Positions 7,774 to 31,935 are shown, numbered from the stretch's first letter. The stretch is DNA of 64,000 bases from Desulforapulum autotrophicum (GCA_020723285.1 DYJE01000019.1:15074-79073); one strand, 5' to 3'. Numbers and translations are program-made. The notes: generated by a model not told the origin, from the sequence alone.

Positions 7774-7815
7774 GGGGTCCTTGTTCCTTCGCTGTCCGGC
7801 AATGAATGAGCTCAC

Positions 7816-10041: not shown

Positions 10042-10149
10042 AAATTATGTTAATGTGAACAATCAAGTCACAACGCATGTCTTGTCAGCCTCCGGAACCC
10101 TCCGGAGGCGGTTCACACCCGTCACATCATCACACATCGGAGGAAAGAT

Positions 10150-11799
10150 ATGAAACGCTCGCTGTTCATGTTCGTTCTGTTTCTCTTGTCATGGATGTTC
10201 GCCGCACATGTCACAGGGCCGCCCCTGGGATTCGCCGATGAAACCGCCCCCGGCAGAGAATCGGCCCGGAAAAAAGTGGAAGACAAGGCTCACTGGAACA
10301 CCACGGACCATTCCAAGCACAAAGTTCTTCAGCAGGCCTTCAAATCCGGGCCGGAGGTGACAAAAGCCTGCCTCACCTGCCACACCGAGGCCTCTCTCCA
10401 GTTTCACAAGACCATTCACTGGACCTGGATGGACCCCAACTCCACGGAAAAAGAAAAACGGGGCAAAGGCGGGTACGCCATCAACAACTTCTGCATCAAC
10501 ATGCTGAGCAACGAACCCCGGTGCACGTCCTGTCACGCCGGATACGGATGGAAGGACAAGACCTTCGATTTCAAGGACCAAAGCAGGGTGGACTGCCTGG
10601 TCTGTCATGAACAGACAGGGACGTACAAAAAATTCCCCGCCGGAGCCGGTTACCCGGTGGACAAACCCACCCTTTTCCCTGAAAACAACGTGACGTTCAT
10701 GCCCCCGGATTACAACAAGGTGGCCCAGAGTGTGGGCCTTCCCGGACGGAAAAACTGCGGAACCTGCCATTTCTTCGGCGGCGGAGGCGACGGCGTAAAG
10801 CACGGAGATCTGGATTCCTCGCTGTTCAAACCGACCAAATCCCTGGATGTCCATATGGGCCTCGACGGCCGGGATTTTCCCTGCGTGCGCTGCCATTCCA
10901 CAAGCCTTCACAACATCGCGGGGCGCGTCTACTCCACACCGGCGGCCCAGGACCGGGAAAGCCTGGTGGAAAACGACCTGGCGTCGAAAATCACCTGCGA
11001 ATCCTGCCACACCAGCACGCCCCACATGGACAACAAGAAGGCCAACGACCATACGGACAAAGTGGCCTGCCAGAGCTGCCATATCCCGACCTTCGCCAGG
11101 GTGAATCCCACCAAGATGCGCTGGGACTGGAGCAAGGGCGGCAAGCTGAAAGACGGAAAACCCTACGAGGAAATCGGTTCGCTGGGTAAACCGGTCTACA
11201 TCTCGAAAAAAGGGGAAATGGTCTGGGAAAAGAACGTGAAACCCCAATATTTCTGGTACAACGGATCCATCAAGCATCTGACGGTCCGAGACACCATCGA
11301 CCCCACCTCCGTGGTGAACGTCAACGAACCCCTGGGCAGCATGGATGACAAACGGTCGCGGATCTTTCCTTTCAAGGTCCACCAGGGCAAACAACCTTAT
11401 GACAAGGTCAACAAAAATCTGCTGGTGGCCCACCTGTTCCCACGGAATCCCGATGACAAAGCCGCGTACTGGAAAGGTTTCGACTGGCCCAAGGCCATTG
11501 AAACGGGCATGGCCTATGCCGGCATTCCCTATTCGGGGGAATACGATTTTGTGGAAACCACTTACGTCTACCCCACCACCCACATGGTGGCCCCCGCGTC
11601 CCAGGTGGTGTCCTGCCGGGAATGCCATACCCGGACCGACGGCCGCCTGATGCACCTTTCCGGATTCTATATGCCGGGACGGGATCACAACCGGCTGATC
11701 GACGTTTTGGGTTGGGGCATTTTGAGTCTCACCCTGGCTGGCGTGCTTCTCCACGCCCTTGGACGTATCGTGACCCGGACCGCCAAAAAGGAGGATTGA
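10150..11799 (+). CDS. Octahaem c-type cytochrome, tetrathionate-reductase (OTR) family, with C-terminal TM helix
   Basis: Signal peptide and eight CXXCH motifs (CLTCH, CTSCH, CLVCH, CGTCH, CVRCH, CESCH, CQSCH, CRECH). CGTCHFFGGGGDGVKHGD is typical of this family. Confidence 0.8.
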   Translation: MKRSLFMFVLFLLSWMFAAHVTGPPLGFADETAPGRESARKKVEDKAHWNTTDHSKHKVLQQAFKSGPEVTKACLTCHTEASLQFHKTIHWTWMDPNSTEKEKRGKGGYAINNFCINMLSNEPRCTSCHAGYGWKDKTFDFKDQSRVDCLVCHEQTGTYKKFPAGAGYPVDKPTLFPENNVTFMPPDYNKVAQSVGLPGRKNCGTCHFFGGGGDGVKHGDLDSSLFKPTKSLDVHMGLDGRDFPCVRCHSTSLHNIAGRVYSTPAAQDRESLVENDLASKITCESCHTSTPHMDNKKANDHTDKVACQSCHIPTFARVNPTKMRWDWSKGGKLKDGKPYEEIGSLGKPVYISKKGEMVWEKNVKPQYFWYNGSIKHLTVRDTIDPTSVVNVNEPLGSMDDKRSRIFPFKVHQGKQPYDKVNKNLLVAHLFPRNPDDKAAYWKGFDWPKAIETGMAYAGIPYSGEYDFVETTYVYPTTHMVAPASQVVSCRECHTRTDGRLMHLSGFYMPGRDHNRLIDVLGWGILSLTLAGVLLHALGRIVTRTAKKED

Positions 11800-11801
11800 C
11801 C

Positions 11802-12473
11802 ATGAACCATGCAGGAGATTCAATGACCACCACGTATCTCTATACCCGCTACGAACGGCTCTGGCACTGGGCCCAGATGCTGATGATCATGATCCTTCTC
11901 TTCACCGGGTTCGAAATCAAAGGCGTGTACAGCGTCCTCGGCTTTCAGACCGCCGTCAAAATCCACAACATCACGGGCCTCACCTGGCTCTGCTCATTTT
12001 TTCTTTTTATATTCTGGGTGTTTACCACCGGCGAGTGGCGGCAGTACATCCCCACCACGCGGAAAATGATTCAGGTGGCCCGGTATTACGCCATCGGAAT
12101 TTTCAAAGGTGAAAGCCATCCGGTTCCCAAGAAGAAAGACGCCAAACACAACCCCCTTCAGCGTCTGACTTACCTTCTCCTTGCAGCCATCCTTCTGCCC
12201 CTCCAGATGGCCACCGGATTTTTTTACTGGTTCTTCAATTCCTGGGACGCCTGGGGCCTGTCCTTCCTGTCTCTGGGGTTTGTAGCCACGCTCCACCTGA
12301 TTTTCGCCTTCGCCATTCTCCAGTTCGTCATCATCCATGTGTACATGACCACCACAGGCCACACGGTCTTCGCCCACATCAAAGCCATGATCACCGGCTG
12401 GGAAGACATCGAAAAAGGCGTGGACGTGGAAGACTGGGAAAAAGCCGGACGGAACAACCCTGCAAAAAACTGA
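11802..12473 (+). CDS. Membrane b-type cytochrome (Ni/Fe-hydrogenase/thiosulfate-reductase cytochrome b family)
   Basis: RYERLWHWAQ motif and 4-5 TM helices with conserved His. The ATG at 11802 lies just after the OTR stop. Confidence 0.75.
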   Translation: MNHAGDSMTTTYLYTRYERLWHWAQMLMIMILLFTGFEIKGVYSVLGFQTAVKIHNITGLTWLCSFFLFIFWVFTTGEWRQYIPTTRKMIQVARYYAIGIFKGESHPVPKKKDAKHNPLQRLTYLLLAAILLPLQMATGFFYWFFNSWDAWGLSFLSLGFVATLHLIFAFAILQFVIIHVYMTTTGHTVFAHIKAMITGWEDIEKGVDVEDWEKAGRNNPAKN

Positions 12474-13253: not shown

Positions 13254-13408
13254 AAGGCGCTGTCTTATTATGAATGTGTGATCTTTTCCTCCGGCGGCCC
13301 TTCCGGGGGTTAGATCCTCCTGGCTGGGACAAGCTTTAAAAATCTGGACAAATGGGTTTTGGAGGATGACCCGCCGTTCGTCCTATTCATATTCGTTGCC
13401 CCCGGCAG

Positions 13409-13703
13409 GGCCAATGCTGTTGACTTAAAAGATGGGCACGGCTTTGCCTTTGCCCATCGGGCTACGGGCTAAAGAGAATAATTGCCCCGACGGGGCTGCA
13501 TCATAAAGCCCAGGGTTGCGGCGAAAGCCGCTACCCTGGGACATTTCAGATGATAATTTTCAACCCCAAAGGGGTTGCGTAACATTCCCTTGAATTGCCC
13601 ATATCCAGACACAACCCCTCTGGGGTTGAGGTGGTTCGTCGGTGATCCCAGGGTAGCGGCGTTGCCGCAACCCTGGGCTATGATACGGAATCCCGCTGGG
13701 ATT
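13409..13703. repeat. REP-type hairpin cluster
   Basis: GATGGGCACGGCTTTGCCTTTGCCCATC, two CCCAGGGT...ACCCTGGG palindromes, CAACCCCAAAGGGGTTG and AATCCCGCTGGGATT. These are the same families as at 1818-2991. Confidence 0.8.
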
Positions 13704-17732: not shown

Positions 17733-19127
17733 ATGACCTGTATCCATGATGACAAGACCGTTTCGGAAAGCCTTCGCTCACCCACCCTTCCCGAAGATTT
17801 CTTCCGAAGGTGGTTTTCATCCCTGCCCAAGCCGGTGATGATTTTTGAAGAGAAAAGCATGGCCGTCATCGACGTCAATGACGCGGCCCTCAAACTCTAC
17901 GGGTACAGCCGTGAGGAAATGCTCAACTTGACGGCCCTTGACATCTCCATTGAAGGGGACGCCACTCGCCGATGCTTCCGCCAGACGGTGGCCGGTGATC
18001 TTGACGAGATTCCCTTTCGCTACCATAAAAAAAAGGATGGCACGGTTTTCCCGGTGGAAGTCATTCCCACGGCCATTCCTTATCAGAACCGGACAATCGT
18101 GTGTGGGCTGGTCAAAGACATCTCGGAACGTATGAAGATGGAGGACATTCGTTTCCGCAGTTCCATCCTGAAAACGTCTCGTTTCGGAGACATCATCGGC
18201 CAAAGTCAGGCCATGCTCGATGTTTACGCGACCCTCCTTAAAGCATCCATGTCGGATGTCAGCGTGATTCTCTACGGGGAATCGGGGACGGGAAAAGAAC
18301 TGGCGGCCCGGGCCATTCATGATTTGAGCGACCGGAAGGACAAGCCCTTCATCACCGTGAACTGCGGGGCCATTCCCCAGGATCTGATCGAGAGCGAATT
18401 TTTCGGTCACCGCAAAGGGGCGTTCACCGGAGCTTTTGCCGATAAAATGGGATATCTCGACTGCGCGGACGGAGGCACCCTGTTTCTCGACGAAATCGGC
18501 GACATTTCCCAAAACATGCAGGTCAAGCTTCTTCGCGCCCTGGATGAAGGCGGATACACTCCGATCGGCGGAAAAGACATCAAACGCCCGGACCTTCGGA
18601 TCATTTCAGCCACAAACAAGGATTTGAGGCAAAAAATCCGGCAAGGACTTTTCCGTGAGGATTTTTTTTACAGAATTCACATTCTCTCCATCCAGATGCC
18701 CCCCTTGAGAAAACGTGAGGGGGATGTAGGGCTTCTGGCCCGGCATTTTCTACACCATTTTACCCATGGAGATTCCATCGCCATTCCAGCCCATGTGCTG
18801 AAAGCCATGGAAACTCACAGCTGGCCCGGCAACGTCCGGGAGTTGAAAAATGTGGTCCAGCGGTTTGTGGCCCTTGCGAACAAGACCCCGGAAGGACAGA
18901 TGATCCCCCTTCTTGAACTGTCCGACAACACGGACTCCGGTGTGAGTGAATCCTCGCCCCTGCCACAAAAAACCCAGGCCCTGAACGGAGTCCTTGAACA
19001 ACATGAAATGGACCACATCCGGCAGGTTCTTGAAAAAGAGCACTGGCATCAGGGAAATGCGGCGGGTGTTCTGGGCATTCACCCCAAAACCCTGGCCCGG
19101 AAGATGCGGCGGTTCGGTCTGGCCTGA
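17733..19127 (+). CDS. Sigma-54-dependent transcriptional activator with PAS domain
   Basis: GESGTGKE, GAFTGA, ESELFGH-like EFFGHRKGAFTGA and a C-terminal Fis HTH. Confidence 0.85.
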   Translation: MTCIHDDKTVSESLRSPTLPEDFFRRWFSSLPKPVMIFEEKSMAVIDVNDAALKLYGYSREEMLNLTALDISIEGDATRRCFRQTVAGDLDEIPFRYHKKKDGTVFPVEVIPTAIPYQNRTIVCGLVKDISERMKMEDIRFRSSILKTSRFGDIIGQSQAMLDVYATLLKASMSDVSVILYGESGTGKELAARAIHDLSDRKDKPFITVNCGAIPQDLIESEFFGHRKGAFTGAFADKMGYLDCADGGTLFLDEIGDISQNMQVKLLRALDEGGYTPIGGKDIKRPDLRIISATNKDLRQKIRQGLFREDFFYRIHILSIQMPPLRKREGDVGLLARHFLHHFTHGDSIAIPAHVLKAMETHSWPGNVRELKNVVQRFVALANKTPEGQMIPLLELSDNTDSGVSESSPLPQKTQALNGVLEQHEMDHIRQVLEKEHWHQGNAAGVLGIHPKTLARKMRRFGLA

Positions 19128-19192
19128 GCCCCAATGTTGTTGGTTTAAGGGTGTTTGTTTCTGATGGGTACGTTGATTGATGGGCGCTGATT

Positions 19193-19267
19193 GATGGGCA
19201 CGCTGACGCTTTGCCCATCCTACAGGGCTGTTGCCGTAGGATGGGCAAAGGCAAAGCCGTGCCCATC
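19193..19267. repeat. Nested REP-type hairpin (GATGGGCA family), possible terminator of the activator gene
   Basis: Outer stem GATGGGCACG/CGTGCCCATC and inner 15-bp perfect stem CTTTGCCCATCCTAC/GTAGGATGGGCAAAG. The flank is an inverted copy of 13409-13458. Confidence 0.7.
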
Positions 19268-19485
19268 GCTTAAGCCGACAGCATTGGGCCTGCGCCCCTG
19301 AGCCCTTCTTGCCGAGGGAATCCGAACGCTCCCAAAAAGGACATTTGGATTCCGGGCATTATTTGATATTATTTCAGAATATTATAAAAAATCATCGCTG
19401 CTTTTTATGGTATCATGGGACAAAACGGTTCCGCCTGATCCAGGCCGTCCCGCCACGAGCCCTGATCAGCGTCAAACACCGTGAC

Positions 19486-19501
19486 TGGCTCACAACTTGC
19501 A
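19486..19501 (+). promoter_or_regulatory. Sigma-54 promoter TGGCTCACAACTTGCA
   Basis: Matches TGGCAC-N5-TTGCA at 10 of the 11 fixed positions. It lies 62 nt upstream of the 19563 start and directly downstream of a sigma-54 activator gene. Confidence 0.7.
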
Positions 19502-19562
19502 CTCATCATGACCGGACAGCTCACTGACCCATACCTTACACATCACCACAACAGGCGCAACC

Positions 19563-19928
19563 GTGAACATCCTTATGGTACAAAACGACATCGTCGAGGC
19601 GGAAGGCGTAGCGGACATGATCCGTCTGTGGGGGCATGACGTTGATGTGGTTCAGCCCGGCAGCCAGATGCACGGCCTGATGCAGAAAACCGATTACGCC
19701 GTGGTTCTGATGGACATTGAATTTCCGGTTTTTCTGTCGTGCCATACGGTCTCCGAACTGAAGCACCTCAGGCCGGAGGTCAAAATCATCACCCTCACGG
19801 CCCTTACTTCCCCCGAATCCGAAACCCTGATACGAAGTTTAGGCATCATCTACTATCTGTCGAAACCGTTTGAGCCGGACGAGCTGAAAACCGTCCTGAG
19901 TCATATCGCCGATCCGGACAAACCTTAG
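19563..19928 (+). CDS. Single-domain response-regulator receiver (partly degenerate acidic pocket)
   Basis: LMDIEFP Asp, TLTA Thr and SKPF Lys are conserved. The N-terminal DD pair is replaced by ND. GTG start. Confidence 0.6.
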   Translation: MNILMVQNDIVEAEGVADMIRLWGHDVDVVQPGSQMHGLMQKTDYAVVLMDIEFPVFLSCHTVSELKHLRPEVKIITLTALTSPESETLIRSLGIIYYLSKPFEPDELKTVLSHIADPDKP

Positions 19929-20030
19929 TCCGGAACCCTGTTGCAGCGCAAACATAAACCGGGCGTCATCGCATAAACCCGGTCTGATTCACCGTTTATT
20001 CGATATCATCATTCACCTGGAGGACAATTT

Positions 20031-22172
20031 ATGGCATGGAAGGATCTTTCATTCAGAGTCAAACTGATGGCGGGTTTCGGTTTGCTTGTTGTTTTAATGG
20101 TCATCAGCTCCCTGGTGACCGTAACCGGGCTTTCAAACCTCAACAGCACCAGAAAAGCCCTGGCGCGTTCGGTCAGCGTGGAAAAGGAACTGACCCAAAA
20201 AATTGCCGATCACCACATCTGGGTCAACGCGGTGTATTCAGCCCTGATGGATACCACGAAAACACAGCTGGATGTTGAAACCGACGACCACCGCTGCAGG
20301 CTGGGGCAATGGTTGTACGGCAAAGAGCATGAGAAACTGGAGGCCGAGTTGCCAAACGAGGCGGAAGCCTTGAAATCCCTTGAAACCTCCCACCTCGCGC
20401 TCCATGAATCGGCGATAAAAATCAACGCCCTGATCGGCGGAAGAACACCGGAAACAAACGCCGACATCATGACCCAGGTCAACCCGGTCATCACGTCCGA
20501 AACGGTCCCGGCCCTCCGTCAGGTCGAGAGCACCATGGACGCCCTCCTTGCAAAAATCGAGGGCAGGCAGAAGCTGGCCAACGAAACCATCGACCGAATC
20601 CTTCAAAGCACACGAAGAACCGTGATCGCCGTATCATGTGCCGTGTTGTTCGCCGTGATCCTCATCAGCATTTTCATGTCCCGTTATATCCTTTCCCGGA
20701 TCATCTTGCTGAAGGACTACGCAAAAAAAATGTCCGGCGGGGATTTCACCCACACCCTCACATGGGGCCAAAAGGATGAATTCGGTGAACTGGCAGATTC
20801 ACTGAACGTCACGTCGGACAAACTGGGCCGGATGTTTTCCGTCATCACGTCCGAAGTCATCAGCCTTTCTTCATCGTCCAACACCATGTTCACCATTTCC
20901 GGCCAGCTTGAAAAAGGGGTGGTCGAGATGACCGACCGGTCTTTCACCGTGGCCGCCGCCGCCGAGGAAATGAGCAGCAACATGAACACCGTGGCCGCCG
21001 CCAGCGAGGAATCCTCCACCAGCATCACCCTGGTGGCAGCGGCCACGGAGGAAATGTCCTCGTCGGTCACCGACATCGCGGAACACCTGGCCAGGGCACG
21101 GTCCGTGGCCCTGAAAGCGGTGTCCAAATCGGGAACAGCCTCGGAAAAAGTCAACGATCTCGGCGGAGCCGCCGCCGAGATCAGCAAGGTCACGGAAGTC
21201 ATCACGGAAATTTCCGAACAGACCAACCTTCTGGCCCTGAACGCCACCATCGAGGCGGCCAGGGCCGGTGAGGCCGGAAAAGGTTTCGCGGTGGTGGCCA
21301 ATGAAATCAAGGAACTGGCCCGGCAGACCTCCCTGGCCACCCAGGACATCAAGGACAAGGTCAAGGGCATCCAGGACAACACGGCCCAGACCTCCGATGA
21401 AATCAAGGAAATCACCCAGGTCATCCACGATGTGAACGATATCGTGGCCACCATCGCCACCTCGGTGGATGAACAGGCCAAAGCCACCCGTGAAATCGCG
21501 GGCAACGTGTCCCAGGCCGCCACGGGCATTCAGGAAGTCAATGAAAACGTAAGCCAGTGCTCCCTGGTGGCTTCTGAAATCGCGAGGGATATCGCCCATG
21601 TCAACGGCATCGCCAACACCATCAAATCCGGAAGCCGGAATGTCAAGGAAAACGCAGGGGAACTGTCCGACTTTGCACGGAAAGTCAAGGACATGGTGGG
21701 TATCATCAAGCTTCCTGATCCTGGGACCGCCGTGTCCGGCGGCGACCAGGACCTGAAGGACGTCCCGCCGCTGATCGTTTTTGACAGCAGCATCCGGCTG
21801 GGCCTTGGCGACATCGACAAACAGCATGAAAAACTTGTGAACCTCATCAACCAGCTTCACCGGATCATGAAACTGAAGATGGGACACACACGGGCCGCCG
21901 CCATCCTGGAAGAACTGGCCAATTACACCACCACCCATTTCGCCTTCGAAGAAAAAATCATGCAGGAACACCAGTACGAGGGCCTTGCGGACCACCGTCA
22001 CAAACACAAGGACCTGCTTGAAAAGGTCGTGGATTTCAAGACCCGTTTCGACAGCGGCAATGCCATGCTGACCATGGATCTCATGGATTTTCTCAAAGAC
22101 TGGCTTGTGAACCACATCCAGGGAACGGACCGGAAATACGCCCCTTTTTTTAAAAGTAAAGGGATATCCTAA
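20031..22172 (+). CDS. Methyl-accepting chemotaxis protein with N-terminal CZB-like zinc-binding domain and C-terminal hemerythrin domain
   Basis: Two TM helices, HAMP, and the MCP signalling hairpin ([28 protein letters not shown]). CZB signature DHHIW...[11 protein letters not shown]...SHLALHES lies between the TMs. C-terminal hemerythrin motifs HFAFEE...HRHKHKDLL...[14 protein letters not shown]. Confidence 0.85.
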
Positions 22173-22238
22173 ACTCTGACGACGCGGGATCGACATCGTT
22201 CCCGATGGGCGAAAACGAAAATGATCGAGGAAAAAAAC

Positions 22239-22655
22239 ATGAGAATTCTTGTCGTTGACGATGACGTGACCAGCCAGACCGTCATGATGAAAACACTGTG
22301 TGAATTTGGCGAGTGCGTGGCCGCCAGCTCCGGCGAAGAAGCCATGGCGGAATTCAACCATGCCTACGATATCGGTTCACCCTTTGATCTGATCTCCCTG
22401 GATATCAGTCTGCCCGACGCATCCGGCATCGACGTGCTCAAAACCATCCGGGCCGTTGAAAAAGCCAGGACGGTCAGCCGGGATCGCGGTTCCAGGGTCA
22501 TCATGGTCAGCTCGTTTTCGGACCACAACCGCGTCATCGGAAGTGTTCAGGCGGGATGCGATCATTTTATCGTCAAGCCGTTTGACCGGGCTTCGCTGCT
22601 TGAAAAAATCAGCCAGATCTGCGGGTTGCCCCTTAAAATAAAAAAAACGATATAG
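22239..22655 (+). CDS. CheY-like single-domain response regulator
   Basis: ILVVDDD, SLDISLPD and KPF. RBS GAGGA precedes the ATG at 22239. The track ORF starts at 22221. Confidence 0.8.
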   Translation: MRILVVDDDVTSQTVMMKTLCEFGECVAASSGEEAMAEFNHAYDIGSPFDLISLDISLPDASGIDVLKTIRAVEKARTVSRDRGSRVIMVSSFSDHNRVIGSVQAGCDHFIVKPFDRASLLEKISQICGLPLKIKKTI

Positions 22656-22681
22656 TACGTTCGTGAAGCCCCAAAGGAGTT

Positions 22682-23077
22682 ATGTTACCGATGTTCATCC
22701 TGATTGTTGACGATTCATTACCTATGCGGAAAGTCATTAAAAAAACAACCGTGGCCGCAGGATTTTCAAGTGCAACCTTTGCTGAGGCTGCCAACGGTTC
22801 AGAAGCTATGAACATCCTCAAGACCCAAAAGATTGACATGCTGATAACCGGTCACAACATGCCCAGGATGAAGGGCCTTGAACTGGTGACCTGGATGAAA
22901 GCTGATTCATCGTTAAATGCCATTCCCGTTATCGTTGTCACGGCCGAAGGAAGCCGCGAAAGACTAAAGGAATTCATGAACCTGGCTATAGAGGGTTATC
23001 TACTTAAACCGTTCACCCCGGAAAAACTCTGCCAGGCCATCATTCCATGTTGCAATCAAAAGGTAAATTTATCATGA
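22682..23077 (+). CDS. CheY-like receiver with Gly at the phospho-acceptor position
   Basis: IVDDS, VVTAEG and LLKPF are conserved, but the DWNMP-type motif reads TGHNMP (residue 57 is Gly, codon 22850-22852). Confidence 0.75.
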   Translation: MLPMFILIVDDSLPMRKVIKKTTVAAGFSSATFAEAANGSEAMNILKTQKIDMLITGHNMPRMKGLELVTWMKADSSLNAIPVIVVTAEGSRERLKEFMNLAIEGYLLKPFTPEKLCQAIIPCCNQKVNLS

Positions 23078-24444
23078 ACATGGATTATAAACTGCTATCC
23101 GATCAATTTGAATCCATCCTGGATCATCTGCCTGCCCTTGTTTTCTACAAAGACAGGGAAAACCGGTTTATCCATGTCAACCAATATGTTGCCGATGCAT
23201 ACAATCGGCCGAAGCATGATCTCAAAGGCGTCAGCCTCTTTGATCTCACATCCCGGGAAGAAGCGGAAAAATACCATAGGGATGATCTGGAGGTCATGGA
23301 AAAGGGTATTGCAAAACTGAACATCGAAGAACCCTGGAATACCCGGAACGGATTGCGCTGGGTTTGCACCAGTAAAATCCCTTTTGTTGATGATCACGGA
23401 AAAATTATTGGTGTGATAGGCATTTCCACGGACATTACCGAGCGGAAAAGGGCCGATGAGCGGATCAAGGAATTGATCCACAAGCTTGCCGTGGATAAGG
23501 ATTTCGCCGAAAAAAATTCCTTAACAGACAGCCTGACCCGCATTCCGAACCGCCGACATTTCGACGAGCGGCTGGCCCGGGAATTTTTCAGGATCAAGCG
23601 AACCGGCGGTTTGCTGTCGCTGATCATCATCGACATCGACCATTTTAAAAAATACAACGATTTTTACGGACACCTTGCGGGAGACGAGTGCCTGTTCCGT
23701 GTGGCCACAGCCATCAAATCCGCCGTGTTCAGGCCCTCGGATTTTTCCGCCCGATACGGCGGAGAAGAATTTGTGGCGCTCCTGCCGGATACGGACGGTG
23801 AAGGCGCCCAAGTCATCGCAGACCGTATCCTCAAGGATGTCGTGGCTCTGAACATTCCCCATGAACATTCGGATCACGCGGCATGCGTCACGGTGAGCCT
23901 TGGAATCGCCACTGCCCGTCCGGATCACTTATCGACTCCGGAAAGCCTGGTCCTCCGCGCGGACAAGGCCCTGTACGAAGCGAAAAAAAACGGGCGAAAC
24001 CGCTACGCCGTGGGGGGTTATGAAACTAACGCGTCCTCTGAAGACCAGGGCTTCATGAACCTTGTGTGGCACAACAGCAACAAGTGCGGAAACCCCATCA
24101 TCGACAGCCAGCATGAAAACCTCTATAAACTGTCCAACAGACTGATCTATTTCATCAGCAACGGAAAAGAAAAAACCCAGTGCTCCACGCTGTTGAAAAA
24201 CCTGCTGCACGATATCCAGCGTCATTTCCAGGACGAAGAAACCCTTCTCGACAGCGTCCGCTATCCCCTTACGGAAGAGCACCGGCATATTCATGGAAAA
24301 CTTCTGACCGGAGCTCATCGCCTGATTGACGCATTCAACAGCGATGAACTGAAAATCGAAGACCTGATCAAATACATCGCAGTGGACGTGATTCTCGAAC
24401 ATCTGATCATCGAGGATAAAAAATATTTTCACTTTCTGGAATGA
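23074..24444 (+). CDS. PAS-GGDEF diguanylate cyclase with C-terminal hemerythrin-like domain
   Basis: GGEEF active site with the RPSD I-site 5 residues upstream. The C-terminus has QHENL...HFQDEE...EHRHIHGKL...EHLIIEDKKY. ATGA overlap with the preceding gene. Confidence 0.85.
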   Translation: MNMDYKLLSDQFESILDHLPALVFYKDRENRFIHVNQYVADAYNRPKHDLKGVSLFDLTSREEAEKYHRDDLEVMEKGIAKLNIEEPWNTRNGLRWVCTSKIPFVDDHGKIIGVIGISTDITERKRADERIKELIHKLAVDKDFAEKNSLTDSLTRIPNRRHFDERLAREFFRIKRTGGLLSLIIIDIDHFKKYNDFYGHLAGDECLFRVATAIKSAVFRPSDFSARYGGEEFVALLPDTDGEGAQVIADRILKDVVALNIPHEHSDHAACVTVSLGIATARPDHLSTPESLVLRADKALYEAKKNGRNRYAVGGYETNASSEDQGFMNLVWHNSNKCGNPIIDSQHENLYKLSNRLIYFISNGKEKTQCSTLLKNLLHDIQRHFQDEETLLDSVRYPLTEEHRHIHGKLLTGAHRLIDAFNSDELKIEDLIKYIAVDVILEHLIIEDKKYFHFLE

Positions 24445-24456
24445 GGTGAAACCGCC

Positions 24457-25497
24457 ATGAAAAAAGGAACCTTGACCTTATCCGATTTCAGACCTTTTTT
24501 GATGCTCGTTGCCGGATGGGCGGGTTTGTGTGTTGCCGGGTGTTCAGGAAACGTGGAACAGCGGGCTCCCGCAGACCGGGTCGTTCTCCAGCTCAAATGG
24601 AGCCATCAGGCCCAGTTCGCCGGTTTTTACACAGCCAGCGCCAAAGGGTTTTACCGCGAGGAGGGCATCGACCCTGTTTTCCTGGAAGGCGGGGCCGGTG
24701 TGGACAGCACAGCAGCGCTTCAGTCCGGCAAGGCTCAGTTCGCGGTGCTTGCCCCCGAGCAGATCCTGATCGGACACACGGAAAACATCTCACTTACCGC
24801 CATTTCGGTGATCTTCCGGAAAAGCGCGGTGGTGTACGTGGCCCATGCCGGTTCAGGCATCGTCCGGCCTTCGGATTTCCTTGGGAAAACCGTGGCGTGC
24901 CGGGATGTGGCGGGATCGGTGAAAGATTTCGAATTCCAGTTTTTTGCCATGATGAACATCCTTAAACTGCCCCTCAACACAGTGCGCATGGTTCCTTTTG
25001 AATACGATCACCAGGGATTTATCGACACGTCTGTCGACGTGACCCCAACGTATTCCATCAACGGTGCCATCAAACTGAAACGCAAGGGACTGAAGCTTCA
25101 GATGATCTGGCCCGACGACTACGGGGTTCACTGTTTTTCCGACACTCTGGCCGCCATGCCGGACGTTCTTGAAAAAAACCCCGACCTGGTCTACCGCTTC
25201 CTGAAAGCGTCGTTAAGGGGCTGGCGATACGCCCTGGGCAACCCCGATGAAGCGGTGGATATCACCATGGCCTATGTCAGAAACAAGGACCGGTCGTTCC
25301 AGGCCGAGATGATGGAGGCCTTAGCCCCCCTGGTGCACACCGGAGAAGACCACATCGGCTGGATGCGTGAAAAAGACTGGACCGACTTTATCCGCTTGCT
25401 TGAAAAACAGAAGGTTCTTAAAAAAGCCATCGCCGATCCGAAACAGGTGTACACCCTGCGTTTCCTGGAACAGATATACAAAGGAACAAAACCATGA
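24457..25497 (+). CDS. Periplasmic substrate-binding lipoprotein (NMT1/THI5-like, NitT/TauT-type SBP)
   Basis: Lipobox LCVAGCSG and SBP-like sequence. ATGA overlap with the downstream kinase gene. Confidence 0.65.
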   Translation: MKKGTLTLSDFRPFLMLVAGWAGLCVAGCSGNVEQRAPADRVVLQLKWSHQAQFAGFYTASAKGFYREEGIDPVFLEGGAGVDSTAALQSGKAQFAVLAPEQILIGHTENISLTAISVIFRKSAVVYVAHAGSGIVRPSDFLGKTVACRDVAGSVKDFEFQFFAMMNILKLPLNTVRMVPFEYDHQGFIDTSVDVTPTYSINGAIKLKRKGLKLQMIWPDDYGVHCFSDTLAAMPDVLEKNPDLVYRFLKASLRGWRYALGNPDEAVDITMAYVRNKDRSFQAEMMEALAPLVHTGEDHIGWMREKDWTDFIRLLEKQKVLKKAIADPKQVYTLRFLEQIYKGTKP

Positions 25498-27377
25498 GCC
25501 TCATGAGCAAATTCCTGACCGTTCTCATGGCCGTGTCCCTTGTCCCGGTCCTGGCCTTGGCTTATCTGGCGTACCGCAACAGCCGGGCCGCCATGGAATT
25601 TTCCAGCATCAGCCATCTCACTGCCGTGAACCAGATGAAAAAAACAGCCATCGAAACCTGGATCGACGAAAACAGAAACACCCTTGAAATTCTGGCGAAC
25701 AACCCCTACTTCAAAACACATTTCACACACATGATGGACCATCATAGCTGCGGCGGTTCAATCCATGCCCGACAGCACGCCTGCATCTGCACCGGGTATT
25801 TCAACCCTGTGCTTCAAAACAAGATCTTCACGGAACTGTTCGTCATCCGTGTCCCTGACGGCCTGGTCCTCGTGGCCAGCGACCCGTCGCAGCTGGGGAA
25901 GTATTTTGAGAACAGGCCGTTTTTCATCGAAGGCATGAAAGGAACATTCATCCAGAATATCCACTACTCCCTAACTCTGCAACAGTCCACCATGGTGGTC
26001 AGCACACCCCTCAAAGATCAGCAGGAAAAACCTGCGGCCGTTCTTGCAGGCCGGGTCAACCTGGACCGCTTGTGCACCATCATGGAAAAAACCACAGGCC
26101 TCATCCGCAGCGAGGACACCTATCTCGTCAATTCCTTCAATTACTTCGTCACCGAGCCCCGGTTCAAAAAAGGATACGCCCTTCGTAAATCCACCTACAC
26201 ACTGGGTGTAACCCGCGCCCTTTCCGGACAGTCGGGCACCGCTTTCTATCCGAATTACAGAGGGGTTCCGGTCATCGGGGTGTACACATGGCTCCCTGAA
26301 CGGCAGCTGGCCCTGATCACGGAAATGGACCAGCATGAAGCGTTCGAACCCATCAGAGCCCTTCAGGCAAGCATGGCTTCGGTCTGCCTTGCGGTGATGG
26401 CGGCGGTCATCGGCATCAGCTGGCTGGCCTCCAGATCCCTCACACGGCCCCTTGAACGTCTCAGCCGGTCCATCCAGCGCATGGGCCAGGGTCACCTTGA
26501 CATCCCTGTGGAACAAACCACGAAAGACGAAATCGGAAAACTGGCACGGGCTTTTGCCCGGATGGCCTTTGACCTGAAAACCATCATGGTGTCCAAAGAA
26601 TCCCTTGAGCAGGAAATCGTTGAACGGAAAAAAACAGAACAAAAACTGAACGCCGTGCGAACCGACCTGGAACGTTCCAACAGGGACCTGGAACAATTCG
26701 CCCATGTGGCGTCCCACGATCTCAAGGAGCCGTTACGCATGGTGAAAAGCTATCTGGAACTCCTCCGGGAAACCCTTTCACCGCCCCTTGACGAACCCCT
26801 TGAAACCTGTATCCGTTTTGCCATGGACGGAGCGGTGCGCATGGAACAAATGATCGGAGATCTGTTAAGCTTTTCAAAAGTGGGGTCACACGGCGTGGAC
26901 CTGCCATGGGTTTCCGCTGAAGAAGCCCTTGAAACGGCAAAAATGAACCTTCAGATCGCCATCCTGGAATCTTCGGCCCGGATCACCAGCGATCCCATGC
27001 CCAAGGTCTATGCGGACAGCATACAGCTTGTCCAGATTTTCCAGAATCTTCTGGCCAACGCCATCACGTTTTCAGAAGGTCCGCCCCGCATTCACGTCTC
27101 CGCCGTAACACAAGAAAACCTGTGCCGGTTTTCCGTGAAAGACAACGGCATCGGCATCGATCCCAGACACAGGGACCGCATCTTCAATATTTTCCACCGG
27201 CTCCACAGCCGGGATAAATACCCTGGAACGGGCATCGGCCTGGCCCTGTGCCGCCGTATCGTCGAGCGGCATGGGGGACACATCTGGTTCGAATCCAAAC
27301 CGGGTGAAGGGACCGAGTTTTTTTTCACGCTTAGAATCTGCGCAAAGGGATTTGAAGGACAAGGAGGCCCGAAATGA
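25494..27377 (+). CDS. Sensor histidine kinase (periplasmic Cache-like domain, HAMP, HisKA, HATPase)
   Basis: Two TMs, HAMP, H-box FAHVASHDLKEPLR, and N/G boxes (QNLLANAITF, GTGIGLALC). Confidence 0.85.
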   Translation: MSLMSKFLTVLMAVSLVPVLALAYLAYRNSRAAMEFSSISHLTAVNQMKKTAIETWIDENRNTLEILANNPYFKTHFTHMMDHHSCGGSIHARQHACICTGYFNPVLQNKIFTELFVIRVPDGLVLVASDPSQLGKYFENRPFFIEGMKGTFIQNIHYSLTLQQSTMVVSTPLKDQQEKPAAVLAGRVNLDRLCTIMEKTTGLIRSEDTYLVNSFNYFVTEPRFKKGYALRKSTYTLGVTRALSGQSGTAFYPNYRGVPVIGVYTWLPERQLALITEMDQHEAFEPIRALQASMASVCLAVMAAVIGISWLASRSLTRPLERLSRSIQRMGQGHLDIPVEQTTKDEIGKLARAFARMAFDLKTIMVSKESLEQEIVERKKTEQKLNAVRTDLERSNRDLEQFAHVASHDLKEPLRMVKSYLELLRETLSPPLDEPLETCIRFAMDGAVRMEQMIGDLLSFSKVGSHGVDLPWVSAEEALETAKMNLQIAILESSARITSDPMPKVYADSIQLVQIFQNLLANAITFSEGPPRIHVSAVTQENLCRFSVKDNGIGIDPRHRDRIFNIFHRLHSRDKYPGTGIGLALCRRIVERHGGHIWFESKPGEGTEFFFTLRICAKGFEGQGGPK

Positions 27378-29689
27378 GCGACAATATAAAAACCATCCTG
27401 ATGGTGGAGGACAACCCGGGGGATGTCTACCTGTTCAAGGAAATCATCCATCGATACAGGCCCGGTAGCTTTCGGCTTGTGTCGTCGGAACGTCTCGACG
27501 ACGGCCTTTTCCTTCTTGAAAAAGAAATGGTGGACCTGATCATCCTGGACATGAACCTGCCGGACAGCCAGGGCATGGAAACCGTTCACGCCGTCAAGGA
27601 AAAAGCGCCGGATGTCGCCCTGGTGGTGGTTACAGGGGACGAGGACGAGCAGCTGGGTATCGATGCCGTCAAACACGGGGCTCAGGATTTTCTGGTGAAA
27701 GGCAGGGTCCCCGGTTTTGTCCTGATCCGAGTCATCGATTACGCCATGGAGCGGCAGGCCTCCGAGCGGCGTTTGAAGGAATCGGAGATGTTCCTCCGTT
27801 CCACCCTGGACGCTCTGACCTCCCATATCGCCATCATCGACGACCGGGGAACCATTCTGGCCGTGAACAAAGCCTGGGAAAACTTCGCACGGGACAACCA
27901 GGCGGACCTGTCCAAAGTCTGTGCGGGAGCCAACTATTTCGCCGCCTGTTCCGAAATCCATGGCGATGAATCCATGCGGGTCGCCGAATTCCTTGAAGGG
28001 ATGCGGTCGGTGCTGGCAGGAGAGACCGAGAGTTTTTCCCTTGAATACCCCTGCCACAGCCCTTTCGAAAAACGCTGGTTTTTCTGCCGCATCACCCCGT
28101 TTCCCAAACCGGGTCCGCCCTGTGTGGTGGTGTCCCATGCCAACATCACCGAACGGAAACTGGCGGAAGAAGCGCTCAAGAATTCGGAACTCAAACTGCG
28201 GACCATACTGGACGCCCTGACCCTTCAGATCGTGTTCATCGGCCTTGACCACCGGATCATCTGGGCCAATCAGGCCTTTTGCGATTTCACCCGCCATACC
28301 CGCGACGTCCTCACAGAGCGGAACTGTTTCGATTTCTGGGAGGGTCAGAGCGAACGCTGCGACGAATGCGCCGTGAACCAGGCCCTTGCCGAGGGACGGG
28401 CGGTGATGAAAACCAAAAAAACCGACGACGGTCGGATCTGGAACGTCATCGGATGCCCGGTGCGTGACCAGGACGGTCGCATCACCAGCATGGTGGAAGT
28501 CCGTGAAGACATCACGGAAAAAATCTCCATCGAGGAACAGCTCCACCATTCCCAGAAAATGGATGCCGTGGGACGTCTGGCCGGTGGCGTGGCCCACGAT
28601 TTCAACAACATGCTCAGCATCATCATCGGTTTCGCCGAACTGTCCCGGGGCTGCATGGATACCGGAAATCCCCTGACGGAAAACATCAACGAAATCCTTT
28701 ACGCTGCCCGGCGTTCCGCGGATCTCACCCGTCATCTCCTGGCCTTCGCGCGCAAGCAGCCTGTGGCACCCAAAATTCTCGACCTGAACCTGGTCATCGA
28801 GAACAGCCGGAAAATGCTTCAGCGTCTGGTGGGGGAGGATATCGACATCCGTTTCGTTCCCTCCGACACCGTGTGGACCGTTTTCATGGACCCCTCCCAG
28901 GTGGACCAGATTCTCACCAACCTGGCTGTAAACGCCCGGGATGCCATCACCGGCCCAGGAACGATCGTCATCGAAACCCGGAATATCCTCATCGATGGAG
29001 CTTACTGCAAAACCCATGTCTATGCCAAACCCGGACTGTATGTGATGATCCGGTTCAGCGACAACGGAAAGGGCATGGATGAAGAAACACGGTCCCGTGT
29101 TTTCGAGCCTTTTTTCACCACCAAACCCCTGGGCGAAGGCACAGGACTGGGCCTGTCCACCGTTTTCGGGATCATCAAGCAGAACCACGGCATGATCAAC
29201 GTGTACAGCGAACCGGGCCATGGAACCACCTTCCGTCTGTACCTTCCGCAGCACAGGGATTCCCTGAAGGACGACACGGAAGATGAAATCACCAGCCTTT
29301 ATCCCCGGGGGCATGAGACGCTCCTGGTGGTGGAGGATGAAAAAAAGATCCTGAAGCTCTGCAAACACCTTCTCCGTGATCTGGGCTACCGTGTCTTCTG
29401 TTTTTCATCCCCCGGCAAAGCGGTGCGTTACCTTGAAAACCACCCCGTACCTTTTGCCCTTCTCCTCAGCGACGTGGTGATGCCCGGCATGAACGGCGAT
29501 GAACTCCGAATCCATGTGGAACGGAAACGGCCCGGCATCCGGACCGTGTTCATGTCCGGTTACACCCACAACGTCATCGCTCAGCGCGGGGTGCTCCCCC
29601 ATGAAGCCGATTTCATTGAAAAACCGTTCACGACATTTGAACTTGCAACAAAAATCAGGACAGTTCTCGACACGGACGAATCCCCCTGA
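27374..29689 (+). CDS. Hybrid sensor kinase: receiver - 2x PAS - HisKA - HATPase - receiver
   Basis: N-terminal LMVEDNPGD...ILDMNLPD, H-box GGVAHDFNNML, GTGLGLS, and C-terminal LLSDVVMPGMNG receiver. Confidence 0.85.
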   Translation: MSDNIKTILMVEDNPGDVYLFKEIIHRYRPGSFRLVSSERLDDGLFLLEKEMVDLIILDMNLPDSQGMETVHAVKEKAPDVALVVVTGDEDEQLGIDAVKHGAQDFLVKGRVPGFVLIRVIDYAMERQASERRLKESEMFLRSTLDALTSHIAIIDDRGTILAVNKAWENFARDNQADLSKVCAGANYFAACSEIHGDESMRVAEFLEGMRSVLAGETESFSLEYPCHSPFEKRWFFCRITPFPKPGPPCVVVSHANITERKLAEEALKNSELKLRTILDALTLQIVFIGLDHRIIWANQAFCDFTRHTRDVLTERNCFDFWEGQSERCDECAVNQALAEGRAVMKTKKTDDGRIWNVIGCPVRDQDGRITSMVEVREDITEKISIEEQLHHSQKMDAVGRLAGGVAHDFNNMLSIIIGFAELSRGCMDTGNPLTENINEILYAARRSADLTRHLLAFARKQPVAPKILDLNLVIENSRKMLQRLVGEDIDIRFVPSDTVWTVFMDPSQVDQILTNLAVNARDAITGPGTIVIETRNILIDGAYCKTHVYAKPGLYVMIRFSDNGKGMDEETRSRVFEPFFTTKPLGEGTGLGLSTVFGIIKQNHGMINVYSEPGHGTTFRLYLPQHRDSLKDDTEDEITSLYPRGHETLLVVEDEKKILKLCKHLLRDLGYRVFCFSSPGKAVRYLENHPVPFALLLSDVVMPGMNGDELRIHVERKRPGIRTVFMSGYTHNVIAQRGVLPHEADFIEKPFTTFELATKIRTVLDTDESP

Positions 29690-29763
29690 AATCAGGGGAA
29701 AAAACAGGCCCGAAATCCTCGGGGTTGACGACGAAAAAACCATAACCTCAGCGGTAAAAAGCC

Positions 29764-31005
29764 ATGAATACGATAAAAATCGTTTTTGCAGATGACGACA
29801 GCAGCGCACGAAAACTGGTTTTGAAATTATTATCCGATCTGGATTTCAATGTTCTCATCGCTGAAAACGGTGTTGAAGCATGGAAGCTCCTCAAGGCCTC
29901 GGGTGCCCGGATTCTGGTGACCGACTGGGAAATGCCCGGCCTTTCAGGCCTGGATCTGTGCCGGAAAATCCGATCGGAATCTGTGGATTCCTATGTTTAC
30001 ATCATTCTCGTGGCTGCCAAAGCCAAGACAGAGGCCAGTATCGAAGGGCTGAAAGCCGGGGCCGACGACTTTCTCGTCAAGCCTCTGGATGTGGGAGAGC
30101 TGAAGGCCCGGTTGCGGACGGGAATGCGAATCATCAAACTGGAAGACCAGTACAAGAAGGCCAGCGTCCAGCTTCTCCATGCTGAAAAAATGGCGTCCGT
30201 GGGGCAGCTTGCTGCGGGCGTTGCCCATGAAATCAACAACCCCGCCGGATTTGTGAGCAGCAATCTGAAAACCCTTTCCGGATATCAGAAAGACTTCATG
30301 GCTTTGATCCGTATATACAAACAATTTTCTGAACAGGTCAAGCCCAGGCTTCAAATGGAAAAAAACGACCCGGCGTGGGACGCTTATCTGGAGATCACCA
30401 CGTTTGAAAAAGACATCGACCTGGACTACCTGATAACCGATACCGAAGATCTGATGAAGGAATCCAGCGAGGGGCTTGAACGGATCAAAAAGATCGTCTC
30501 GGACCTGAAAGACTTCGCCCATCCCGGTGAAGACACCATGCAGGAGGCGGATGTCAACGCCTGTATCGAATCCACGCTGAATGTGATCAAAAATGAAATC
30601 AAGTACAAGGCTGTCGTCATCAAAAACTTTGGAGAACTCCCCCCCCTGGTCTGTTATCCCCAGCAGCTTAACCAGGTGTTCCTGAACATGGTCATCAATT
30701 CGGTCCATGCTATGACGGTTCCTATGGGTGAAATCGTCATCACCACGGATGTCGTCCCCCAAGGCATCCGCATCCGCATCAAAGACAACGGAAGCGGTAT
30801 TGAAAAAAAGAACCAGTCAAGAATTTTCGATCCGTTTTTTACAACCAAGCCCGTGGGTAAGGGAACCGGGCTTGGAATGAATGTGGTTTACAACATCATT
30901 AAAAAACATCATGGAAGCATTGATCTCTGGAGTGAAGCGGGCTTAGGAACCGAATTCACCATCATCCTTCCCGTTTCCCGAGACAACGGAAAAGCGGATT
31001 TTTAA
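29764..31005 (+). CDS. Response-regulator receiver fused to histidine kinase
   Basis: VTDWEMPGLSG receiver, H-box GVAHEINNP, and GTGLGMNVV G-box. Confidence 0.85.
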   Translation: MNTIKIVFADDDSSARKLVLKLLSDLDFNVLIAENGVEAWKLLKASGARILVTDWEMPGLSGLDLCRKIRSESVDSYVYIILVAAKAKTEASIEGLKAGADDFLVKPLDVGELKARLRTGMRIIKLEDQYKKASVQLLHAEKMASVGQLAAGVAHEINNPAGFVSSNLKTLSGYQKDFMALIRIYKQFSEQVKPRLQMEKNDPAWDAYLEITTFEKDIDLDYLITDTEDLMKESSEGLERIKKIVSDLKDFAHPGEDTMQEADVNACIESTLNVIKNEIKYKAVVIKNFGELPPLVCYPQQLNQVFLNMVINSVHAMTVPMGEIVITTDVVPQGIRIRIKDNGSGIEKKNQSRIFDPFFTTKPVGKGTGLGMNVVYNIIKKHHGSIDLWSEAGLGTEFTIILPVSRDNGKADF

Positions 31006-31047
31006 TGCCAGGTGGCTACCCTGAATCAAGCGCAAAGAGAGGTTTCT

Positions 31048-31935
31048 ATGTACGACATGGACGCAGATAACATGATGCACACCCTTACATCGTTCAAGGA
31101 TCTTCCCACCCTTCCGGTCATCGCCCTCGAAATCAACAGACTGCTGGCCAGCGACACGACAAGCGTAAACAACCTGAGCCGGATCATCGCAAAAGATCAG
31201 GCCATTGTATCGAAACTTCTCAAACTGGTGAACTCGTCGTTTTTCGGAGTGAGGTCCAAGGTTTCATCGGTAGAGGAAGCGGTGGTCCGGCTTGGATTCA
31301 ACTCCGTGAGGAACGTGGTGGTGTCCGTCAGCATTTTCGAATCCCTGACCCTTGCCCACCCCGAAGACCTGGGTTTCAGCCTGGTGGAATTCTGGGAGCA
31401 TTCCATCGCTGTGGCCGTCACCAGCCGGTATCTTTCAGAAAAAACAGGTTTACAAGACCCCGACGACTGTTTCGTGGCAGGCCTTCTCCATGATATCGGC
31501 CTCATCGTCATTGCCCGGTGTTTTCCTGAAAGCCTGGTGAATATCCTGCGAAAAATCAAAGAGCGGAACGTTTCCCTGTATGACATTGAAAAAGAAGTTC
31601 TCCCCATCCGCCACAACAAAATCGGCGAAATTCTTGCCAAAAAATGGCAGCTGCCTTCTTCGGTCTGCGACGCCCTGAAATATCACCACGCGCCCAACCG
31701 AAGTGCTGCAAACCCCGAGCTGCTCACGCTGATCCATCTTGGCGATGTGATCACCCGGCGCTTTTTCATCACAACCATCAATCCTGAAACGAACAGCGCA
31801 TCCCCTGTTCTATCAAGCATCGGCGCATCCGCGGAAAAAAAACTGGATCTGATGTATCAAAATGTGAATCTCTGGTTTCCCGGTGTGCGGGAAACCATCC
31901 GGGAGGCCTGCGAATTCTTCATCAGACACGAATGA
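31048..31935 (+). CDS. HDOD-domain signalling protein
   Basis: LPTLPVIALEI...DQAIVSKLLKLVNSSFFG...AGLLHDIG is typical of HDOD. The ATG at 31048 follows AGAGAGG. Confidence 0.8.
   Translation: MYDMDADNMMHTLTSFKDLPTLPVIALEINRLLASDTTSVNNLSRIIAKDQAIVSKLLKLVNSSFFGVRSKVSSVEEAVVRLGFNSVRNVVVSVSIFESLTLAHPEDLGFSLVEFWEHSIAVAVTSRYLSEKTGLQDPDDCFVAGLLHDIGLIVIARCFPESLVNILRKIKERNVSLYDIEKEVLPIRHNKIGEILAKKWQLPSSVCDALKYHHAPNRSAANPELLTLIHLGDVITRRFFITTINPETNSASPVLSSIGASAEKKLDLMYQNVNLWFPGVRETIREACEFFIRHE

Follow-up and report, generated by a model that had tools for sequence, protein, structure and literature searches.

A 64,000 nt stretch of Desulforapulum autotrophicum DNA (GCA_020723285.1 DYJE01000019.1:15074-79073), termed here the window and read as one strand with coordinates counted from its first letter, carries consecutive signalling genes on the + strand at 17733-31935. 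Among them are the gene of a chemoreceptor, a methyl-accepting chemotaxis protein (MCP) with a CZB domain near its N-terminus and a hemerythrin at its C-terminus, and the gene of a PAS-GGDEF cyclase that also ends in a hemerythrin. We consider it reasonably probable that these genes form a sigma-54-dependent 11-gene signalling cluster, that the receptor works through a Che system encoded elsewhere, and that taxis and cyclic di-GMP (c-di-GMP) responses to oxidants are co-expressed. Every domain type in it is a known one, and databases have many examples of each architecture; it is the combination that is unstudied. The genes, with domains of the + strand open reading frames assigned by Pfam profiles, are as follows.

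17733-19127, + strand: sigma-54 enhancer-binding protein (EBP), the activator, with PAS, Sigma54_activat (2.5e-64) and HTH_8 (Fis-type) domains
19563-19928, + strand: REC1, single-domain receiver of 121 aa (Response_reg), first gene of the unit
20031-22172, + strand: MCP of 713 aa, CZB-HAMP-MCPsignal-Hemerythrin
22221-22655, + strand: REC2, single-domain receiver
22682-23077, + strand: REC3, CheY-like single-domain receiver
23074-24444 (open reading frame from 23047), + strand: PAS-GGDEF-hemerythrin cyclase
24457-25497, + strand: NMT1/SsuA-type periplasmic lipoprotein with a VAGC lipobox (NMT1, 1.1e-38)
25494-27377, + strand: dCache-HAMP-HisKA-HATPase membrane histidine kinase, overlapping the preceding gene by 4 nt
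27374-29689, + strand: REC-PAS-HisKA-HATPase-REC hybrid histidine kinase, overlapping the preceding gene by 4 nt
29764-31005, + strand: REC-histidine kinase
31012-31935, + strand: HDOD protein (HDOD, 1.8e-61), final gene of the packed unit

The original prediction, made by a model from the sequence alone, gave the gene order as activator, receiver, MCP, two CheY-like proteins and PAS-GGDEF-hemerythrin protein, and each of these genes is found where it was placed. The same prediction ended the transcription unit at 24444, which is too early, as the unit continues to 31935 with five further genes. Intergenic gaps from REC1 to the HDOD gene range from -4 to 102 nt; those from the cyclase onward are 12, -4, -4, 74 and 6 nt, and 645 nt then precede hcp. 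Scans for terminator-like sites and for sigma-70 promoters inside the cluster both gave counts at chance level. Because of the tight gene spacing and the chance-level terminator signals, the sequence most likely represents a single transcription unit of 11 genes at 19563-31935, about 12.4 kb in length with its promoter at 19486. None of the cluster proteins has an equivalog-level name in NCBIfam. The lipoprotein is a probable co-sensor for the adjoining dCache kinase, and the two probably sense a periplasmic solute.

Related loci, designated by L numbers, separate the conserved part of the cluster from its accessory part. Their gene content is given below with identities to the window proteins.

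L005/L006: MCP at 67% identity; REC1, MCP, REC2, REC3, cyclase, then a signal-peptide gene
L087/L088: cyclase at 66%; activator, REC1, cyclase, Tll0287-like gene, NMT1, dCache-histidine kinase, hybrid histidine kinase, REC-histidine kinase, REC-HD; without MCP, REC2 and REC3
L089: cyclase at 64%; activator, REC1, REC2, REC3, cyclase; without MCP
L004: MCP at 64%; PAS-histidine kinase, REC, REC-HisKA-REC-GGDEF, then MCP as the last gene
L090: MCP at 43%; dCache-histidine kinase, REC and hybrid histidine kinase upstream; MCP, a 0-nt gap, Tll0287-PAS kinase, PAS-GGDEF-hemerythrin
L001, L002, L003 and L091: MCP at 47-62%; a lone MCP gene in unrelated neighbourhoods

Six window proteins have counterparts in the L087 cluster at 63-75% identity; these include the lipoprotein (66%, in the same position), the dCache kinase (63%), the hybrid kinase (70%) and the REC-kinase (75%). 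Since the orthologous clusters of L087/L088 and L089 have no MCP, the conserved entity is, on this sequence comparison, the activator, REC1, cyclase and kinase cluster, and the chemoreceptor is an accessory gene. The core can be described as a PAS-type activator, the promoter with two upstream boxes, REC1, the cyclase, the NMT1 lipoprotein, the dCache-HAMP kinase, the hybrid kinase and the REC-kinase. In the window lineage, the genes of the chemoreceptor and of two further receivers are found between REC1 and the cyclase. The tie of the receptor family to kinase and GGDEF-hemerythrin genes is repeated but non-obligatory. The proposal that the operon may couple oxidant or metal sensing to c-di-GMP stands in part: the link between receptor and c-di-GMP genes recurs in several independent arrangements, but the MCP is dispensable to the conserved cluster. 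A side observation from these loci concerns Tll0287-like domains (PF11845), which recur as a separate gene after the cyclase (L087 11483-12424), as a fusion with the histidine kinase whose gene follows that of the receptor (L090 12143-14188), and as fusions with GGDEF-hemerythrin proteins (P0178, P0182 and P0185).

The region between the activator gene and REC1 contains three elements.

19317-19353, + strand: distal block, GGAATCCGAACGCTCCC and then box GGACATTTGGATTCC, also kept in L087 and L089; candidate activator site
19418-19432, + strand: proximal box GGACAAAACGGTTCC; candidate activator binding site
19486-19501, + strand: sigma-54 -24/-12 element TGGCTCACAACTTGCA, 62 nt before the REC1 start

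Compared with the sigma-54 consensus TGGCAC-N5-TTGCW, in which GG and GC are 10 nt apart, TGGCTCACAACTTGCA differs at one position and keeps the GG-N10-GC spacing. It is the sole match in the window at no more than one mismatch, where 2.6 are expected, and at least one match is found in 91 of 100 shuffles of the window; the motif is therefore not enriched over chance. The promoter call is credible because of position and conservation, not of motif score alone. The element is conserved in the orthologous intergenic regions, as TGGCCCGCTGTTTGCA in L087 and TGGTTCACTATTTGCA in L089, where it lies 45-64 nt before the GTG start of REC1 and the flanking sequences have diverged. The claim of a good sigma-54 promoter just after an activator gene thus holds for position and for conservation in three loci; as a motif by itself, the element is no better than chance.

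The upstream boxes add to the picture. A GGACA-N4-GRTTCC box is present in two copies, 78-80 bp apart, in all three loci (the window, L087 and L089). A+T makes up 73% of the spacer that parts the two boxes. Relative to the -24 element, the upstream distance is 68-108 nt for the proximal box and 147-188 nt for the distal one, which in the window is at 147 nt. The background rate of the box is 0.023 per kb, and of the three exact matches that the 64 kb contain, two fall upstream of this promoter. The activator gene lies directly upstream in the window, in L087/L088 and in L089. In the window EBP, the GAFTGA motif and the Walker A motif of the AAA+ domain are legible directly in the sequence, and its orthologs in L087/L088 and L089 are 68-70% identical over the AAA+/HTH part. 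As far as sequence can tell, the layout is that of a classical activator-dependent sigma-54 promoter, and the EBP likely activates it.

A second sigma-54-like site, CGGAACCCTGTTGCA, in the gap between REC1 and the MCP was rejected, as its GG-to-GC spacing is one base short. Separately, the segment at 19127-19300, past the activator gene, has direct repeats of TGATTGATGGG and, at 19209-19250, a perfect 15-bp stem with a predicted energy of -36.5 kcal/mol. An inverted copy of 54 nt from this region, at 91% identity, occurs at 13405-13458, likewise between genes. The segment may be a small repeated element or the terminator of the activator gene.

The MCP is composed of the following parts.

About 20058-20129, + strand: first transmembrane (TM) segment, TM1, by hydrophobicity
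20211-20423 (residues 61-131), + strand: periplasmic CZB, PF13682, 54.4 bits against a cut-off of 29.4
About 20616-20684, + strand: TM2, by hydrophobicity
20673-20825 (residues 215-265), + strand: HAMP, by Pfam
About 20826-21710, + strand: signalling domain, MCPsignal of Pfam
21810-22148 (residues 594-706), + strand: hemerythrin, by Pfam at 55.9 bits

Two hydrophobic segments, at residues of about 10-33 and 196-218 and with Kyte-Doolittle maxima of 2.4 and 3.0, bracket the CZB domain, and both are hydrophobic in all 102 full-length homologs. HAMP starts immediately past the second segment. Because HAMP and the signalling domain must be cytoplasmic and HAMP directly follows TM2, residues 34-195, CZB included, are by standard reasoning predicted to be periplasmic; the positive-inside charge count over the TM segments is ambiguous. 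The CZB motif was reportedly defined by Draper and colleagues in 2011 as Hxx[WFYL]-x21-28-Cx[LFMVI]Gx[WFLVI]-x18-27-HxxxH. The receptor has H..W-x24-C.LG.W-x26-H...H at residues 61-125, and the putative ligands H61, C89, H121 and H125 are kept in 97-98 of the 102 aligned homologs. The heptapeptide C-R-L-G-Q-W-L follows the positional rules given in PMC8262984; its second position is Arg in the window receptor and mostly Lys in the receptor family. AlphaFold2 (AF2) models of the N-terminal region are all-helical, with predicted local distance difference test (pLDDT) values of 90.6 and 94.1. In these models the first helix is long and bears H61, C89 is found where a short helix begins, and the long helix that comes next carries H121 and H125, separated by one turn. 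The CZB assignment is made because of the Pfam score, the motif and the ligand conservation taken together. A CZB signature between two TM helices had been read from the sequence alone, and it is upheld by Pfam, the motif and the hydrophobic segments. Its residues do align to the zinc ligands, and the topology, with HAMP right after TM2, does not point to the cytoplasm.

The receptor hemerythrin has the ligand set H599, H636, E640, H655, H659, H695 and D700, i.e. five His, one Glu and one Asp. Six of these di-iron ligands are invariant in the 102 homologs, and H655 is found in 91 of them, with Gln in the other 11. The best solved match is the hemerythrin domain of DcrH (DcrH-Hr; E = 3e-20). 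Both C-terminal hemerythrins, of the receptor and of the cyclase, align full-length with DcrH-Hr and match at all seven ligands (H, HxxxE, HxxxH, HxxxxD). That the MCP ends in a hemerythrin, and that a cyclase with an I-site does so as well, is therefore confirmed by Pfam and by the ligands in both proteins. The cyclase has GGEEF with an RPSD I-site five residues upstream. In the database the protein has 456 aa; its most likely start is accordingly at 23074, so that the gene shares 4 nt with the end of REC3. The PAS-GGDEF-hemerythrin order is common in databases, and no characterised protein of this kind was found in the literature searched.

The original prediction regarded a periplasmic CZB combined with a cytoplasmic hemerythrin in one receptor as unusual. 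This is too strong. Periplasmic CZBs are a documented minority, 3.9% of CZBs (Perkins 2021, mBio, PMC8262984). In an exhaustive search with a TM1-plus-CZB profile, 873 representative clusters reached E ≤ 1e-30, and the number rose to 1,737 at the looser limit of E ≤ 1e-10. The matches sampled are MCPs in which the periplasmic CZB domain is single or present as a tandem array of two, three or five, and one of them has the window architecture without the hemerythrin. The full CZB-HAMP-MCP-hemerythrin architecture, of about 710 aa, is present in more than 100 of the best 120 clusters at 90% identity, most of them from Desulfobacterota; named carriers among these are Desulfobulbaceae, Desulfocapsaceae, Desulfomarina and Thermodesulfobacteriota. 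In addition, the DcrH layout is known. The NCBI name for these receptors is only 'bacteriohemerythrin', which reflects a domain-level model. In the literature searched, no description was found of CZB and hemerythrin in one receptor, nor any experimental study of a periplasmic CZB. The receptor is thus a populated yet unstudied variant of DcrH-type receptors. An exact-protein look-up gave no record of the window receptor itself. A metagenome scan with an N-terminal alignment gave 121 pattern matches, none of which encodes a relative, and a genome-collection scan with a full-length alignment gave mostly unrelated MCPs, its seeds being generic MCP tip peptides. It should be mentioned separately that tandem CZB domains (two, three or five) between TM1 and HAMP occur in P0307, P0308, P0310, P0314, P0338 and P0345; no mention of tandem periplasmic CZB arrays was found in the literature searched.

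No CheA, CheW, CheB or CheR domain is present in any open reading frame scanned across the 64-kb window, in agreement with the earlier reading that cheA, cheW, cheB and cheR are absent. In the receptor family, 36 of the 42 positions of the hairpin tip are at least 98% invariant, and three [ASTG]xx[EQ][EQ]xx[ASTG][ASTG] methylation sites are conserved. A lone-gene layout is frequent for ordinary chemoreceptor genes. Because of the invariant tip, the methylation sites and the many lone-gene family members, the receptor most likely signals via CheA/CheW encoded elsewhere in the genome, as its sequence suggests. The description of the cluster as a signalling operon with no CheA/CheW is correct for the window and has an ordinary reading: the receptor keeps the hallmarks of CheA, CheW and CheR interaction, and the receivers are not orphans, since three histidine kinases are encoded in the same unit.

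The three single-domain receivers differ in their active sites. REC2 has the full residue set (DD, D, S, K) and is the only one so equipped; its NCBIfam CheY score, 53.6, is below the cut-off of 189, and it has orthologs in L005 and L089. REC1 has QN (PN in orthologs) where CheY has D12/D13, wherever this region is readable; the L005 copy ends at the contig end. As acceptor residue, the four orthologs have D, D, E or N. The REC1 orthologs of L087 and L089 are at 9547-9927 and 2272-2646, and all readable ones start with GTG. REC1 is probably a pseudo-receiver, judging from these residues. The best PDB matches to REC3 are CheY proteins (E ~1e-20), but a Gly is aligned to the phospho-acceptor Asp57 (litGhnmp vs vvtDwnmp). 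The Gly is also present in the orthologs of L005 (3062-3445) and L089 (3280-3669), which are 56-57% identical, while Asp is kept in all 28 other database homologs examined. Because the Gly is conserved only in operon-linked orthologs, REC3 is, by this alignment, a lineage-specific pseudo-receiver. Cle proteins have an Arg-rich tail that binds c-di-GMP. A similar tail on REC3 was looked for and rejected, the C-termini being neither Arg-rich nor conserved.

Taken together, a working scheme can be put forward for the favoured interpretation, i.e. a sigma-54-dependent cluster with a Che-linked receptor. The PAS domain of the activator would sense a cue and the whole unit would be switched on. The receptor would respond to periplasmic zinc ions (Zn2+) or oxidants via its Zn-Cys site and to cytoplasmic oxygen or redox state via its hemerythrin, with CheA and CheW supplied from elsewhere. 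CZB domains have been linked to oxidant and zinc sensing (PMC8262984) and to aerotaxis and redox taxis (preprint 10.64898/2026.07.03.735341). By analogy with Bhr-DGC, the rate of the cyclase would be set by the redox or oxygen state of its di-iron centre, and product inhibition at the I-site would limit the output. The three kinases, one aided by the lipoprotein, would pass phosphate to REC2 and to the receiver domains that they carry. For REC1 and REC3, an adaptor role independent of phosphorylation is proposed, with REC3 and the cyclase coupled in translation. Taxis and c-di-GMP responses to oxidants would in this way be co-expressed. This anaerobe, probably a member of the Desulfobacterota and represented by DNA runs of a subsurface metagenome, would likely move away from oxidising conditions, with the genes for a c-di-GMP response expressed alongside.

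Several points weigh against this scheme. Co-transcription is deduced from gene spacing, and an internal promoter could lie in the 102-nt gap before the MCP. Neither che genes nor rpoN were seen within the 64-kb window. Zinc and iron binding are predictions from the residues. With the AF2 models, either of the full N-terminus or of the trimmed soluble domain, Foldseek found no match at E<0.1 and did not recover DgcZ (3T9O); the nearest structures are four-helix-bundle (4HB) ligand-binding domains of chemoreceptors, none of them significant. A profile of the periplasmic-domain family run against PDB sequences likewise reached no solved CZB. Finally, receptor-family genes recur beside kinases and GGDEF-hemerythrin genes, once with a 0-nt gap, and the coupling could go beyond co-expression.

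A different question is that of the signal. It is conceivable, though unlikely, that the cluster responds to nitric oxide (NO) or nitrosative stress and not to oxygen or general redox state, and that it belongs with NO and nitrite genes adjoining it. Directly downstream are found the following.

32581-34242: hcp (Prismane, 1.3e-173), downstream of the cluster
34457-36697: quinol-type NO reductase, NorB with a cytochrome c-like domain, downstream of the cluster
36780-38450, - strand: NrfA
38395-38991, - strand: NapC/NirT-type cytochrome, the partner of NrfA
41473-42009, - strand: HPP membrane protein

Di-iron and Zn-thiolate centres are known to react with NO. However, the neighbourhood is seen in the window only, as the L087 contig ends and the other loci have unrelated neighbours, and the 645-nt gap separates the cluster from hcp. 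Moreover, characterised hemerythrin sensors answer to oxygen or redox state and not to ligand binding (PMC9388753).

The accessory nature of the chemoreceptor raises the question of whether it is a passenger, that is, an independently transcribed MCP gene which arrived by rearrangement and whose position has no functional meaning. Its presence or absence does differ among related clusters, the 102-nt gap upstream of it is accompanied by a strong ribosome-binding site of its own, and lone-gene members of the family are numerous. Yet the same position is kept in L005, at 67% identity and with a REC1-MCP gap of only 24 nt; the family is tied to GGDEF and kinase genes in other independent arrangements; and the terminator scan shows no + strand terminator-like site between REC1 and the MCP. 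We regard a meaningless position as quite improbable.

Least credible, and in our estimation very unlikely, is a stronger form of the earlier idea, in which the MCP signals straight to the cluster kinases, the CheY-like proteins or the cyclase and so feeds c-di-GMP, the receptor family being wired to classical kinases and hemerythrin cyclases without CheA/CheW. The 64 kb without che genes agree with this, and in four arrangements (the window, L005, L004 and L090) the receptor gene shares its strand with two-component or GGDEF genes and is within 50 nt of them; in L090, the 0-nt gap to the Tll0287-PAS kinase is followed by the GGDEF-hemerythrin gene, and in the window the receptor is set among an Asp-less CheY-like protein and a pseudo-receiver. 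Nevertheless, a near-invariant CheA/CheW-binding tip and conserved methylation sites would be unexpected without Che partners, half of the examined loci have the receptor as a lone gene, and the conserved cluster works without it; moreover, we know of no description of MCP signalling without CheA/CheW-type proteins. Should this route be real, a chemoreceptor-type sensor would control c-di-GMP in an undescribed way.

The interpretation favoured here, with a Che system elsewhere, can be compared with known systems. DcrH, at 959 aa, is much longer than the window receptor. DcrH of Desulfovibrio vulgaris has a periplasmic region, TM, HAMP, MCP and a C-terminal hemerythrin (PMC9388753). The window receptor shares with it the order of parts, all seven di-iron ligands and occurrence in anaerobic lineages of the sulfate-reducer type, but in the periplasm it has a short CZB zinc module, about 160 aa in length. 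The comparison is one of layout and hemerythrin, as only the hemerythrin domain of DcrH is in the PDB. With the periplasmic CZB subgroup of Perkins 2021, the receptor shares a CZB that is N-terminal and between TMs, 3His/1Cys ligands and the C-x-L-G-x-W-L motif. In that group, however, motif position 2 is poorly conserved or Ala, whereas it is Arg in the window, and hemerythrin is not among the partner domains described in the survey (PMC8262984).

The zinc-ligand motif, as well as a chemotaxis or c-di-GMP output, is also common to TlpD of H. pylori, McpA of Salmonella and DgcZ of E. coli. These proteins sense oxidants, oxygen or zinc availability (PMC8262984; preprint 10.64898/2026.07.03.735341). 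The CZB of TlpD and McpA is cytosolic and C-terminal, and that of DgcZ is cytosolic and N-terminal to GGDEF; in contrast, the window CZB is placed in the periplasm and must signal via TM2 and HAMP. Bhr-DGC of Vibrio cholerae is under redox control, its reduced form being about 10 times more active (PMC9388753). Like the window cyclase, it has hemerythrin and GGDEF in one protein; the ligands of the window protein are intact, its GGEEF is predicted to be competent, and by analogy its reduced form would be the active one. The difference is in the order of domains, since the hemerythrin of Bhr-DGC is N-terminal and the window cyclase has an N-terminal PAS and a hemerythrin C-terminal to GGDEF. 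The Wsp system of Pseudomonas resembles the cluster in combining the genes of an MCP and of a diguanylate cyclase. Its CheW, CheA-REC, CheR and CheB homologs are dedicated to it, and its cyclase is of the REC-GGDEF type. The window cluster differs in having none of those Che homologs, a cyclase without a receiver, and kinases of the classical HisKA type.

Other features of the window can be listed briefly. A second PAS-type sigma-54 activator, at 6379-7857 on the - strand, is divergent from 8335-12473, which encodes a pyridine-nucleotide disulfide oxidoreductase with a rhodanese domain, a multihaem cytochrome and a cytochrome b561-type protein. At 59547-63427 (- strand) are a phosphonate-type periplasmic binding protein, a HAMP histidine kinase and a REC-HisKA_3 kinase, with a logic like that of the cluster's sensor set. 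At 48240-52832 (- strand), a formate-dehydrogenase-like molybdopterin oxidoreductase adjoins SelB, the selenocysteine elongation factor; because of this neighbour, the oxidoreductase is suggested to be a selenoprotein, its open reading frame perhaps ended at an in-frame UGA. An IS200-like transposase and a PIN-domain protein are near the start of the window, at 2191-2646 and 4942-5397.

The value of the cluster is that of a good model system and not of a new principle, useful but not surprising. The regulatory unit is testable, with its conserved promoter, candidate boxes, hemerythrin cyclase and two conserved pseudo-receivers. The receptor bears on how a C-terminal hemerythrin would signal to an MCP domain, a question also posed by DcrH. 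It can be looked at as one receptor with two sensors for one class of signal (oxidants, oxygen and redox) in two compartments, and it could show how a strict anaerobe weighs the redox state outside against that inside when choosing the direction in which to swim.

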